Below are positions 1,016-7,186 of a DNA stretch of 15,945 bases, in pieces. Each line of letters opens with the position of its first letter. Position 1 is the first letter of the stretch. Source of the stretch: a virus (lineage: Duplodnaviria; Heunggongvirae; Uroviricota; Caudoviricetes); the IMG/VR virus record IMGVR_UViG_2698536395_000013. One strand, given 5' to 3'. Both the position numbers and the translations under genes were made by a program. The notes beneath the pieces are model-generated. The model did no database searches, was not told where the DNA came from, and worked only from the letters and a program-made list of their open reading frames with translations.

Positions 1016-2098
1016 ATGAAAAAATTAACAGTGGCAATTTCTGCTGTAGCTGCATCAGTACTGATGGCGATGTCTGCTCAGGCAGCTGAAATTTATAATA
1101 AAGACAGTAACAAGCTGGATCTGTACGGGAAAGTTAATGCTAAGCACTACTTCTCCTCTAATGATGCAGATGATGGTGATACTACTTATGCCCGTCTTGG
1201 CTTCAAAGGTGAAACCCAAATCAACGATCAACTGACTGGTTTCGGTCAGTGGGAATATGAATTCAAAGGCAACCGCGCTGAATCTCAAGGTTCCTCCAAA
1301 GATAAAACCCGTCTTGCCTTCGCTGGCCTGAAATTCGGTGACTACGGCTCCATCGATTATGGCCGTAACTACGGTGTAGCATACGATATTGGTGCATGGA
1401 CCGACGTTCTGCCAGAATTCGGTGGCGATACCTGGACCCAAACAGATGTATTCATGACTGGTCGCACCACAGGTGTTGCAACTTATCGTAACAATGACTT
1501 CTTTGGTCTGGTTGATGGTCTGAACTTTGCTGCTCAGTATCAGGGTAAAAATGACCGTACTGACGTAACTCAAGCTAATGGTGATGGTTTCGGTTTCTCC
1601 ACTACTTATGAGTATGAAGGTTTCGGCGTAGGTGCAACCTATGCTAAATCTGATCGCACTAATAATCAGGTTATCTACGGTAACAACAGCCTGAATGCAT
1701 CTGGTCAAAATGCTGAAGTATGGGCAGCTGGTCTGAAATATGATGCGAACAACATCTATCTGGCTACTACCTATTCTGAAACCCAAAACATGACTGTTTT
1801 TGGTAAAAACCATATTGCCAACAAAGCACAAAACTTCGAAGTAGTTGCACAATATCAGTTCGACTTCGGTCTGCGTCCGTCCGTTGCTTATCTGCAATCT
1901 AAAGGGAAAGACTTGGGTGCTTGGGGTGATCAGGACCTGGTTGAATATATTGATGTAGGTGCAACCTATTACTTCAACAAAAATATGTCCACTTTTGTTG
2001 ACTACAAAATCAACCTGATTGATAAGAGCGATTTCACGAAAGCATCTGGCGTTGCTACCGATGATATCGTTGCTGTAGGTATGGTTTACCAGTTCTAA
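1016..2098 (+). CDS. nmpC: OmpC/OmpF-family general porin (NmpC/OmpD-like), 360 aa, intact
   Basis: Signal peptide [23 protein letters not shown] then [16 protein letters not shown], typical porin beta-strand periodicity, and a C-terminal ...VGMVYQF ending in Phe. AAAGGG SD before the ATG. Lies antisense between Q and the holin, as nmpC does in DLP12. Confidence 0.9.
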
Positions 2099-4381: not shown

Positions 4382-4783
4382 TTATTTTAACTCATAGATC
4401 AGACAGTCAACGATTTCTAAACCATTTACCATAGAATTAGAAACGCGAACTTTACCATCGTTGACTCTAGCAAATCCTTTTAACATTTTATAAACAAAAG
4501 CTGAATCCCCCTTAGCCTCAATTGCTTCTAATGGTATCGGCTTATACTTTTTTGATATGCTATTTCTATTTATCTCACTGATTTTTCTATATATTTCTGC
4601 CGGCCCACGTTCTGAGAAGTCACTGATAACTAAAATATATCTCCAAGATAGATCTGGGTAATAAAACCACATTGCAGCATCAATAGTTAAATTCTGTAAC
4701 TTGAGTTTTTTTAACAAAAATTGACCTGAGAATTCCATATCTTTTGTCAACTCTCTGCCGATTACCAGTGTGCTTTTACCCAT
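4382..4783 (-). CDS. hypothetical protein, 133 aa, partner of the upstream HEPN gene
   Basis: ORF with GGAG SD 9 nt before the ATG at 4783; overlaps the HEPN stop by 22 nt, so the two genes are likely co-translated. AT-rich coding sequence. No motif recognised. Confidence 0.55.
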   Translation of the reverse strand: MGKSTLVIGRELTKDMEFSGQFLLKKLKLQNLTIDAAMWFYYPDLSWRYILVISDFSERGPAEIYRKISEINRNSISKKYKPIPLEAIEAKGDSAFVYKMLKGFARVNDGKVRVSNSMVNGLEIVDCLIYELK

Positions 4784-5178
4784 TTCAAAACTCCAGAATT
4801 TTGGTCACCTACAGCATCAAACAATTGTTCGGCCATAGCTTTACTTATGTTATTGTCGTATCTAAATTGCTCGCTCCAGTCTTTAACGACCGACCAGTTA
4901 ATCTCCAACGAAACATCATTTTTTGCGTCAGCAATCAAAATTTGATGTAAGTTGGCAATTTTGAGAAGTTGCGACAAATCATGAGTATATGAATCATTTA
5001 CGACTTTTTTGTTTGGAAACTCATGTTGTAAAAATGACTTGGCAATACAGGCCTTCAATGCACATTCAACTGCATACCCACAAAGATAATATGCACCATG
5101 AAAAAAGCCATGATCAAGCAAGCATTTGGCCTCATTAAGCCTAGTGTCAGATAATGCTTCAAGGTCGTTTTTATTCAT
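4762..5178 (-). CDS. HEPN-domain protein, 138 aa
   Basis: Translation ...EAKCLLDHGFFHGAYYLCGYAVECALKACIAKSFLQHEFPNKKVVNDSYTHDLSQLLKIANL... matches the classic HEPN helical pattern (A.E.ALKA ... tHDL..Ll). No canonical R-x4-6-H is visible before the His, so catalytic status is uncertain. Confidence 0.65.
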   Translation of the reverse strand: MNKNDLEALSDTRLNEAKCLLDHGFFHGAYYLCGYAVECALKACIAKSFLQHEFPNKKVVNDSYTHDLSQLLKIANLHQILIADAKNDVSLEINWSVVKDWSEQFRYDNNISKAMAEQLFDAVGDQNSGVLKWVKAHW

Positions 5179-5477: not shown

Positions 5478-6221
5478 TTACAGCCGTTCAGAACGTAAAT
5501 GCGTCAATACTCGACTCCACTTATCATCCTGCCACGGCCGGAATTTTACATGTGCCGTTTCTCTGGCAAGGATTGCCTGTGCCTTATTGAGTATCCGGGG
5601 ATATTCTTGTTCGATTGAAGTGAAGCGACCGGCTTCGCGGTGTTCTGCTACCTGAAGAAGCGGAGTGACGTTTTGGCAAGCGGTTAACATTGTGTCACTT
5701 GCCCGCCATAACCAAGCAAGTGTGCAAAGTTCGTTATCAGTGAATTGTTTTGTGATTGGGGATTGTTGAATTTCTCGATCGAGAATATCCAGCACCCAGC
5801 GGCGGAATTCTTTGGCCACAGGAGTGCGGGCGAACATGGCGATCAGATGGGCGCCACGGAGGGAGAAAATGCGAGTCTTCTTACGATAATTTCCTGAGGT
5901 CGTTGATTCGACGACCTGAGACATTCCGTCAGTAAACTCATCAATATTTTTGTTGTAGATGTCGGTTACTGCTTTGGTGCTGGCATATTTTAATGCTGCC
6001 GCCAATTCTTTGCTGGTAAACCAGATCTGGTTGTTGTGATTTATAGGAGTGAATTTTACATCGCGGAATGCGAGCTGAGTGACCATAGCGATAATCTCGT
6101 TTTGAATTTGAGCTATCACCACCGACGACGCCAATCGACTGGTGGTGGACTGTGCAAGGTTGGCGTAACCGGTCAAAACGAAATCCGGCGCTTCCGAAGA
6201 AGCCCTCACACAGCCCACCAT
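5478..6221 (-). CDS. Bro-N domain protein (Roi / antirepressor-like), about 247 aa; start uncertain
   Basis: Translation contains FRDVKFTPINHNNQIWFTSKELAAALKYASTKAVTDIYNKNIDEF, which resembles the Bro-N DNA-binding domain. Start chosen at MVGCV (ATG 6221) because the longer track ORF (to 6323) would read through an intrinsic terminator at 6249-6270. A later start at MVTQ (6089) is possible. Confidence 0.55.
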   Translation of the reverse strand: MVGCVRASSEAPDFVLTGYANLAQSTTSRLASSVVIAQIQNEIIAMVTQLAFRDVKFTPINHNNQIWFTSKELAAALKYASTKAVTDIYNKNIDEFTDGMSQVVESTTSGNYRKKTRIFSLRGAHLIAMFARTPVAKEFRRWVLDILDREIQQSPITKQFTDNELCTLAWLWRASDTMLTACQNVTPLLQVAEHREAGRFTSIEQEYPRILNKAQAILARETAHVKFRPWQDDKWSRVLTHLRSERL

Positions 6222-6248
6222 AATTTTTGTGTAGACGTGCACTGCGCA

Positions 6249-6270
6249 TAAAAAAACCGCGAACGCGGTT
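6249..6270 (-). terminator. intrinsic terminator on minus strand (nin-region tR-like) immediately upstream of the Bro-N gene
   Basis: 6-bp stem AACCGC/GCGGUU with a 4-nt loop, followed on the minus strand by UUUUUUA (plus 6249-6254 is TAAAAAA). Confidence 0.5.
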
Positions 6271-6330
6271 ATGCGTCGTTTTGATGTCCGGGACGCCAAT
6301 CCCGTGTGCCGATTTTGCGGCAACGCACAG

Positions 6331-6360
6331 AATATAGCGCCGGATAAATAATGTCGTCAA
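6331..6360 (-). promoter_or_regulatory. candidate sigma70 promoter on minus strand feeding the terminator/Bro-N leader
   Basis: Minus-strand TTGACG (6360..6355), 18-nt spacer, TATATT (6336..6331). The spacer is 1 nt longer than optimal. Sequence-only prediction. Confidence 0.3.
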
Positions 6361-6517
6361 CCCTTGCATATGGGGGGCGCGATGATCACTACTACCACCA
6401 TAATCGCTCCAACTGTTGCAACTACTTTAGGCTAAGACATCACGATTTCCATATCACCTTTAGCCGCCAGACAAACAGAGACTCCCTGTTCTTGGCTGCC
6501 AAAAACACCGAATGCAA

Positions 6518-6610
6518 AAAATCGCAGGTGTATTTCTGCATCTGTGGAGGGAGAAGAGAGTTTGGATTGTATGTGCGCATAAACGTCCCCGTTTAGCGCA
6601 GAAGTCACCG
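6518..6610. repeat. 93-bp direct repeat, copy B (right boundary of the inserted cassette)
   Basis: See copy A; the two copies are 2322 bp apart. Similarity stops abruptly on both sides of each copy. Confidence 0.85.
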
Positions 6611-6838
6611 TAGTTGTTCATATTCTGATGACATGATAATTTCCTATTGAATAGAAAAAATTAACACGACTCATTCTTATGACTGGAAAAAGCAATCATG
6701 CTAATAATCATTGTTGTTCCAGTTCCAAATGCAGCGAAATAATCACCAATATTTTTTCTACCGGTTTCGACTTTGATGCTATATTCTGCTAACACCTAAC
6801 TAACACTACGTTTCACACAGCAATTACATGGAAATAAC

Positions 6839-7186
6839 ATGACTATCAAAGCGACTGACATAGAGATTCTTCATCGTTATGCTGAAGGGGTAATGGAACG
6901 TTCTAACCATCATGCAAAAAATGTTGGTGCAGCCGCTCTTACATTGCTAGGAGGTGTTATCTGGAAAGCCCTGCCCGGATCAATCGAGATAAGAACGTAT
7001 AACGGAAGTCTTGCAAATATGGTGTGGTGGCAAAGCGAAAGAACATTAAAAAATTATGCAATCTCATACAACCATAATTCATGTGAAATTGAAATGAGAG
7101 ATGAATCAGTCAAAGGTGCTGTATTATTTAGCATTTCCAACGAAACCACTCCAGAAAAAATATTATCACAGCTTTCTGAGCTTTAA
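6839..7186 (+). CDS. hypothetical protein, 115 aa, solitary plus-strand gene inside the minus-strand early-right operon
   Basis: ORF MTIKATDIEILHRYAEGVMERSNHHAKNVGAAALTLLGGVIWKALPGSIEIRTYNGSLANMVWWQSERTLKNY.... Very AT-rich gene and upstream region. Extended -10 TGcTATATT at 6777-6785. Followed by a hairpin at 7192-7209. No family recognised. Confidence 0.55.
   Translation: MTIKATDIEILHRYAEGVMERSNHHAKNVGAAALTLLGGVIWKALPGSIEIRTYNGSLANMVWWQSERTLKNYAISYNHNSCEIEMRDESVKGAVLFSISNETTPEKILSQLSEL

Follow-up and report, generated by a model that had tools for sequence, protein, structure and literature searches.

An IsrK-C4 RNA leader that probably keeps a prophage antirepressor gene silent in a lambdoid phage sequence

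The 15,945-nucleotide Caudoviricetes sequence IMGVR_UViG_2698536395_000013 (IMG/VR), hereafter referred to as the window, carries an antirepressor gene on its minus strand, preceded by a leader in which two regulatory RNAs are encoded. An initial annotation of this segment, made from the nucleotide sequence alone, had reported a Bro-N gene preceded by a promoter and an intrinsic terminator. Both signals are present, the terminator having been found again by a terminator scan, and together they delimit a gene for the small RNA (sRNA) IsrK. When the whole window was scanned with Rfam at gathering thresholds, exactly two matches were returned, isrK and C4, both of them in the leader. The isrK family (RF01394) matches over its full length at 6322-6250 with 64.1 bits (gathering score 50; E = 5e-12), while the C4 antisense RNA family (RF01695), which begins 24 nucleotides (nt) downstream of the IsrK terminator, matches over model positions 1-87 of 87 with 82.5 bits (gathering score 45; E = 2.7e-15). 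The promoter and terminator are therefore not the full regulatory unit, as the initial annotation had taken them to be; C4 and its two target sites, a2 and b2, with b2 lying over the ribosome-binding site of the antirepressor gene, had been missed.

The window was compared with 13 other phage loci (14 in total; L numbers below denote individual loci of this set), which share either the leader only or the whole region. They include Gifsy-1, VT2-Sakai, Shiga toxin (Stx) 2a and Stx2c phages, SfV, phiV10, Enterobacter phage Tyrion, a Yersinia phage, and further Escherichia coli phages; P1 was added separately. In 13 of the 13 other loci isrK is followed by C4 at a distance of 23 to 27 nt, and every annotated record among them has an antirepressor-type gene downstream.

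The isrK promoter (Table 1) is the best sigma-70-like site between positions 5000 and 7000 (10/12). Five promoter-like sites were found in this interval versus 3.9 expected from shuffled sequences, a number not above chance, so that it is conservation and homology that support this promoter: its position is kept in related loci, and the c4-a1b1 model aligns its -10 element with that of P1c4/P51b, the P1 promoter. Transcription is predicted to start at about G6324; in Gifsy-1 the +1 position lies 7 nt after the -10 element (PMC4825925; numbering checked on the sequence), and deletion of the Gifsy-1 isrK promoter abolished transcription (PMC4825925). Folded alone at minimum free energy (MFE), IsrK forms three hairpins, namely two 5' hairpins and then the Rho-independent terminator, whose hairpin begins about 60 nt after the -10 element. 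Compensatory changes were observed in 7 of the 12 IsrK hairpin pairs among the 14 loci, and a T-run is found at the terminator position in all of them.

The C4 sequence folds with -42.4 kcal/mol (z = -5.1), and its consensus structure is a long basal stem enclosing two hairpins. Across the compared loci, 13 of its 27 pairs show compensatory changes and none is broken except for one gap. A tRNA/tmRNA scan of the window gave no match, which excludes C4 as a tRNA-like gene call. The annotated C4 of P1 allows the mature RNA to be predicted by homology at about 6219-6141: the P1 record (misc_RNA) places the mature 5' end between the U and the G of the AUG that corresponds to 6221. This end is an RNase P cut in P1, and by analogy C4 is probably cut out of the read-through RNA by RNase P here as well.

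Two segments of C4, a' and the loop b', are complementary to sites on either side of it. The a' segment can pair with both a1 in IsrK and a2 in the mRNA, which have the same sequence (duplex energy, -10.3 kcal/mol). All 12 bases of the b' loop pair with b2 (11 Watson-Crick pairs and one G:U; -12.4 kcal/mol), and nine loop bases pair with b1 (-10.1 kcal/mol). The Shine-Dalgarno GAG spanned by b2 is located 9 nt before ATG 6086, and b2 itself ends 7 nt before this ATG, with no open reading frame (ORF) between.

To assess specificity, duplex energies were calculated all against all for the 14 loci, with a permutation control. For the b' loop of the window, its own b1 and its own b2 are each the best of 14 candidate targets. 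The cognate b':b1 pair ranked best in 13 of 14 loci, and the cognate b':b2 pair ranked first or second in 12 of 14. Mean cognate energies were -11.4 (b1) and -11.3 kcal/mol (b2), compared to non-cognate means of -4.6 and -5.3 kcal/mol, and none of 20,000 permutations reached the observed cognate means. The b sequences vary in almost every phage and change along with their targets. The a sites also change in concert where they change, with a'/a1/a2 reading GACC/GGUC/GGUC in Tyrion (L008) and GUAGCAA/UUGCUAC/UUGCUAC in L011.

On the basis of which elements are present and in what order, of their covarying structures, and of the complementarity and co-variation of the pairing sites across phages, we consider, with a probability of about 0.85, that the leader silences a prophage antirepressor gene by an antisense RNA switch of the P1 (immI-like) type. 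Most transcripts from the isrK promoter would end at the IsrK terminator, yielding an sRNA of about 75 nt, while read-through transcripts would contain C4 with its long stem and two hairpins. The a' segment and b' loop of C4 would then pair with a2 and b2 on the read-through mRNA, and translation of the antirepressor (ant) gene would be blocked because b2 covers its ribosome-binding site. Since a1 and b1 copy the targets, IsrK would be able to compete with a2 and b2 by binding C4, whether free or contained in the long RNA, and an excess of IsrK would switch the antirepressor on. The antirepressor, with its Bro-N and P22_AR_C domains, would in turn inactivate a phage repressor and promote induction. 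Repression by C4 through a2 and b2 has been demonstrated in P1; promoter use, terminator read-through, a1:a' pairing, and activation by IsrK in trans have been demonstrated in Gifsy-1 (PMC4825925), where IsrK raised translation of the antirepressor gene anrP more than 100-fold and an a1-mutant IsrK could not (PMC4825925). RNA processing, the role of IsrK as a decoy, and the target of the antirepressor are what we infer for the window locus.

The initial annotation had proposed that expression depends on the leader through antitermination or attenuation, and this stands insofar as the gene has its own promoter and a terminator that must be read through, as was shown in Gifsy-1 (PMC4825925); it falls short in that the promoter-terminator unit is the IsrK sRNA gene and not just a leader acting in cis. 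A strictly cis-acting leader, with attenuation or protein antitermination at 6270-6250 and no trans-acting RNA, would account for a terminator between promoter and gene and for the read-through seen in Gifsy-1 (PMC4825925), and antiterminated phage transcription could perhaps cross the module as well, given its location in the early operon, between P and Q. Such a leader nevertheless leaves the conserved, co-varying C4 and its a2/b2 targets unexplained. Moreover, the Gifsy-1 operon is transcribed yet untranslated unless IsrK is supplied in trans (280 versus 4 Miller units; PMC4825925), which argues that control is mainly translational, and no N-type antiterminator gene was recognized in the window, where the ORFs to the left of cI have matches to PHROGs of unknown function only. 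We regard a purely cis-acting leader as quite improbable compared to the antisense RNA switch.

Table 1. Elements of the isrK-C4-antirepressor segment, in window coordinates
Feature	Position	Strand	Description
sigma-70 isrK promoter	6331..6360	-	-35 TTGACG 6360-6355; 18-nt spacer; -10 TATATT 6336-6331
IsrK sRNA gene	6250..6324	-	Rfam RF01394; MFE fold
IsrK hairpin 1	6322-6307	-	MFE fold
IsrK hairpin 2	6304-6289	-	a1 in and around its loop
a1	6299-6293	-	UUGGCGU; in IsrK hairpin 2
b1	6284-6276	-	UCAAAACGA; single-stranded IsrK spacer
IsrK intrinsic terminator	6270-6250	-	third IsrK hairpin; AACCGC-GTTC-GCGGTT and 7 T; terminator scan
C4 antisense RNA	6138..6225	-	Rfam RF01695; fold; covariation
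AUG in C4 5' strand	6219..6221	-	within conserved UUAUGGUGGG, C4 basal stem; first AUG of Gifsy-1 orf45
b' loop	6184-6173	-	AUUUCGUUUUGA; loop of second C4 hairpin
a'	6166-6160	-	ACGCCAA; in C4
a2	6128..6134	-	UUGGCGU; 7-nt duplex with C4 a'; just 3' of C4
conserved element	6116..6123	-	GGUGGUGA; near-invariant in 14 loci; downstream of a2
b2	6094..6105	-	UCAAAACGAGAU; pairs with b' loop; spans Shine-Dalgarno GAG 6098-6096
antirepressor gene	5478..6086	-	202 amino acids; start ATG 6086-6084; stop codon ends at 5478

The product of the antirepressor gene scores 52.2 bits with Bro-N (PF02498; cutoff 25.6) and 61.6 bits with P22_AR_C (PF10548; cutoff 22.4), and the gene matches the PHROGs entry "anti-repressor Ant" at 9.6e-56. 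Its start at ATG 6086 is also that of the RefSeq coding sequence (CDS) called by the Prokaryotic Genome Annotation Pipeline (PGAP; WP_001415151.1, 202 amino acids), and it aligns with a start codon in 14 of 14 loci, each with a purine-rich Shine-Dalgarno sequence upstream that abuts or overlaps b2. Recognition of a Bro-N gene in the initial annotation was correct: the mechanical ORF 5478-6323 contains Bro-N (E = 2e-13) together with P22_AR_C (E = 1.5e-16), making its product antirepressor-like. So was the view that the long ORF is not a real gene, since from TTG 6323, a mechanical ORF boundary only, it would read through IsrK, the terminator, and C4; this ORF was rejected. The start favored instead, ATG 6221 about 30 nt past the terminator, was rejected too. 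It lies inside the basal stem of C4, and the ORF from this position comprises 8, 15, 33, 35, 36, or 45 codons in eight loci, is out of frame in one, and is fused with the antirepressor frame in the window and four others; because frame and length vary in this way, it is not a conserved coding frame.

Automatic annotations had been suspected of misplacing the start. This is not so at the window, because RefSeq/PGAP already begins the gene at ATG 6086; PGAP places no feature over IsrK or C4. Several relatives do bear the suspicion out, with deposited CDSs drawn across both RNAs in SfV (orf37; L009 821-1657), 1720a-02 (antirepressor; L010 1121-1984), and PhiR47_1 ("Rha protein"; L012 821-1969). 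Small spurious CDSs cover the RNAs in VT2-Sakai (orf34; L004 1305-1478) and IdasGreatGrand (L003 1209-1458).

AUG 6221 is nonetheless at the center of another explanation, which follows the account given for Gifsy-1. In that account, AUG 6221 would be a real start of an upstream ORF (uORF), and IsrK in trans would open the structure so that ribosomes cross the C4 region, activating anrP by coupling in Gifsy-1 and giving here, from the fused frame, an N-terminally extended antirepressor of 247 amino acids. The AUG is indeed in frame with ant, 45 codons upstream, with no stop codon between. In Gifsy-1, the SPA-tagged product of orf45, the corresponding frame, was detected (PMC4825925), and mutation of its first AUG or an early stop codon lowered activation by IsrK (PMC4825925). 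These AUG and stop mutations, however, also alter C4. Besides the lack of a conserved frame and length over the 14 loci, the Gifsy-1 study itself reported that orf45 has a conserved nucleotide sequence and an amino-acid sequence that is not conserved (PMC4825925). No Shine-Dalgarno sequence precedes 6221, the AUG is inside a 17-bp stem and would be split by the mature C4 5' end as placed in P1, and the PGAP start is 6086. We therefore consider translation from AUG 6221 unlikely.

Several observations weigh against the antisense RNA switch, at least in its simplest form. In Gifsy-1, mutations of a1 in cis raised basal expression (PMC4825925), an effect that a model in which C4 represses and IsrK merely titrates does not predict; the authors invoke alternative folds and a uORF from the AUG in the C4 stem (PMC4825925). 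IsrK toxicity in that phage persisted when STnc1160, the C4 region, was co-expressed (PMC4825925). The two loci whose antirepressor genes are closest to that of the window, L003 and L014, have a b' loop, GUUUGAGUAG, that is matched by b1 in IsrK, and no b2 complement was found before the gene (L003 1344-1475 and L014 820-951; -2.4 kcal/mol, rank 12 of 14). Pairing with b2 is thus not universal, which suggests either a recombination joint between C4 and the cargo gene or loss of b2 control in these two phages. The near-invariant element GGUGGUGA has two alternative partners in the predicted folds. Pairing with CACCACC in the 3' strand of C4 would leave a2 in a hairpin loop, an arrangement also seen in P1; pairing with the nucleotides that immediately precede the ant AUG would leave b2 in a loop and the Shine-Dalgarno sequence in a stem. 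Alternative folds therefore probably matter, and the element is a possible conserved conformational switch. The Shine-Dalgarno sequence is weak (GAG) and also lies in a predicted local hairpin, so that the gene may be off even without C4. Finally, the c4-a1b1 model (RF03163) matches the window over its full length at 6337-6285 (E = 5e-9) with 40.6 bits, under the gathering score of 46.7 that is passed by Gifsy-1, Sakai, an Stx2a phage, and P1; the layout of this motif is present: the second hairpin holds a1, b1 follows directly on its 3' side, and the two are complementary to C4. Because the effect of a1 in cis, the STnc1160 result, L003 and L014, and the two pairings of GGUGGUGA do not fit a simple form of the antisense RNA switch, the uORF and alternative-structure model stays a partial rival.

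The two accounts could also be combined. Read-through RNA would then either be processed by RNase P, giving C4 and an AUG-less mRNA shut off by C4, or, where IsrK holds the C4 fold open, be translated from 6221 into the 247-amino-acid antirepressor, a choice that we think distinctly unlikely to operate here. If true, the same 88 nt would serve as an antisense repressor and as coding sequence, and the accounts of Gifsy-1 "orf45" and P1 "C4" would describe the two sides of a single switch between RNase P and the ribosome.

In E. coli O26/O103 strains, E2865 among them, a DLP12-like lambdoid prophage matches the window at 100% identity. On the minus strand the genes run in the order cro, a cII-like gene, O, P, isrK-C4-ant, a HEPN gene, nin genes, and quuD (Q), with cI divergent from cro and with porin and lysis genes beyond Q, which places the module within the rightward early operon between P and Q. 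That the promoter and terminator are chance matches in a decaying cryptic prophage, an inert relic with no current function, would agree with a count of promoter-like sites that does not exceed that of shuffled sequences, and with late genes that resemble those of cryptic DLP12. We find this most improbable in view of two Rfam families above their gathering scores (E values of 1e-12 to 1e-15), of intact structures, target complementarity, and ant ORF, and of a region that is matched at ≥99% by 173 records, the best-matching ones being 100% identical. The annotation beneath the matches listed is either nothing or part of a protein gene. Among 5,426 complete E. coli genomes, 2,423 (about 45%) contain homologs of isrK-C4, with a maximum of seven per genome; the genome of strain E2865 (NZ_AP018808.1) has three places homologous to the leader.

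Other features were noted around the module. The antirepressor gene is closely followed downstream by an ORF with a HEPN domain (5178-4762, minus strand; Pfam E = 3e-6), which overlaps by 22 nt a 133-amino-acid ORF of unknown function (4783-4382, minus strand; phrog_5760, no Pfam match); the pair (4382-5178) may be a toxin-antitoxin or defense-type insertion within the nin region. A short ORF remnant at 6432-6608 (minus strand), called an incomplete pseudogene by PGAP, harbors a hairpin resembling a terminator (6540-6523) a short way upstream of the isrK promoter. A 115-amino-acid ORF of unknown function (6839-7186, plus strand; phrog_5959), located between P and this promoter on the strand opposite to the early operon, looks like a moron, with promoter-like sites nearby at 6812-6840 and 6855-6883. 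A complete porin gene of the OmpC/NmpC type (1016-2098, plus strand; Porin_1, E = 3e-153), also on the opposite strand, separates the gene for the Q antiterminator from the lysis genes, as in DLP12.

The genes downstream of the leader are a mosaic. The antirepressors of the window and L003 combine Bro-N with P22_AR_C, Gifsy-1 AnrP has ORF6N, VT2-Sakai Ant has ORF6N and P22_AR_C, phiV10 and Tyrion have Bro-N, the Yersinia phage has ORF6N and Rha, and P1 Ant1 has ANT/KilAC. What is conserved is therefore the RNA module and not the protein. In an Stx2a phage (L005 1988-2071) a match to sRNA-Xcc1 (RF02221; 75.7 bits) was also seen, about 560 nt downstream of C4.

The value of these findings lies mainly in annotation, because recognizing isrK and C4 fixes the start codon of the antirepressor gene; the corrected start, the missed C4, and an explicit equivalence of the IsrK and the C4/a1b1 accounts are the useful outcomes. 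Gifsy-1 IsrK/"orf45" and P1 a1b1/C4 are the same module in two lines of published work. A 2025 review still gives the two RNAs as separate entries, and the terms "isrK" and "c4 antisense" are named together in only three papers of the literature searched; a paper on APSE phages had already noted isrK and C4 beside a BRO-N gene. Co-resident prophages have different b loops, which co-vary with their targets, and the loops therefore probably define which of these prophages can cross-talk in poly-lysogenic enterohemorrhagic E. coli (EHEC); if real, this would matter for Stx-phage induction.

Among known systems, the immI region of P1/P7 has the same order of elements as the window (P51 promoter, a1, b1, c4 RNA, a2, b2, icd, ant1/2), and the P1 record is annotated in the order promoter, a1, b1, C4, a2, b2, ribosome-binding site of icd, and ant. 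Both C4 RNAs belong to one Rfam family, with a' in the junction and b' in the loop of the second hairpin; in both, a2 is just 3' of C4, b2 lies over a ribosome-binding site, an antirepressor gene follows, and a T-rich hairpin separates b1 from C4. P1 contains C4 and c4-a1b1, while its leader reaches 35 bits with the isrK model and, unlike that of the window (64 bits), stays below the gathering score. In contrast to immI, whose icd is required for ant to be expressed, the window has no icd-like ORF, and b2 directly precedes the antirepressor gene, whose domains differ from the ANT/KilAC of P1. In Yersinia phage vB_YpM_44 (L006 1435-1626), a 63-codon ORF follows b2 and overlaps the start of the downstream ORF6N/Rha gene as icd does in P1; no alignment between this ORF and Icd was obtained. 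No repressor operator comparable to Op51 of P1 was found at the window promoter, where no 8- to 10-mer common to the cI-cro intergenic region and 6301-6440 was detected, a weak test for a cI operator. P1 is a plasmid prophage, while the module of the window sits in the nin region of a lambdoid one. Weinberg et al. (2010) describe the c4-a1b1 motif, and according to the supplement of that work, competition of a1/b1 with a2/b2 for C4, allowing ant expression, was proposed by Citron and Schuster in 1990.

The isrK-orf45-anrP operon of Gifsy-1 has the same IsrK and C4 (STnc1160/"orf45"), with identical a1 and a' sequences and a near-identical promoter (-35 TTGACA versus TTGACG in the window; -10 TATATT in both). 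Hershko-Shalev et al. (2016) showed that anrP is transcribed from the isrK promoter by read-through of the IsrK terminator (PMC4825925), and the compensatory mutations G28A/C162U and G31A/C159U define the IsrK:"orf45" helix (PMC4825925). When the published numbering was placed on the Gifsy-1 sequence, every named base was reproduced: G28 and G31 fall in a1 and C159 and C162 in a', so that the paired bases are exactly those of a1:a', while G114 pairs with C175 in the C4 basal stem and A107 belongs to the AUG in the C4 5' strand. Accordingly, orf45 (nt 107-244) encloses the Rfam C4 match (nt 103-186), and a stable processed RNA, STnc1160, was noted there (PMC4825925). The same AUG occurs in the window 45 codons before the gene, but orf45 stops at an AUGA overlapping the anrP start, whereas in the window a 1-nt length difference leaves no stop and fuses the frames. 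AnrP (ORF6N) is 31% identical to the window antirepressor over 54 residues (E = 9e-4), and b' specificity differs between the two phages. Gifsy-1 carries isrJ downstream, which the Rfam scan did not find in the window, and has Q immediately upstream of the module, compared to about 3.4 kb downstream here.

The ant leaders of VT2-Sakai, an EHEC phage, and of Stx phages likewise carry isrK and C4 before ant in the nin region of a lambdoid phage. In VT2-Sakai, isrK, c4-a1b1, and C4 lie upstream of "anti-repressor Ant"; the RNA region is about 73% identical to that of the window, with a different b specificity. The initial annotation had likened the Bro-N protein to Roi of HK022/HK97, a resemblance that is confined to an antirepressor-type gene between P and Q. 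HK97 Roi consists of Rha and ANT/KilAC and has no BLASTP similarity to the window protein (E = 0.07), and its gene overlaps ninF and has neither a promoter of its own nor an RNA leader, IsrK, or C4. The module of the window is thus one already known, composed of curated Rfam families and corresponding to the architecture of P1 immI minus icd and to isrK-orf45-anrP of Gifsy-1 with the frame fused.

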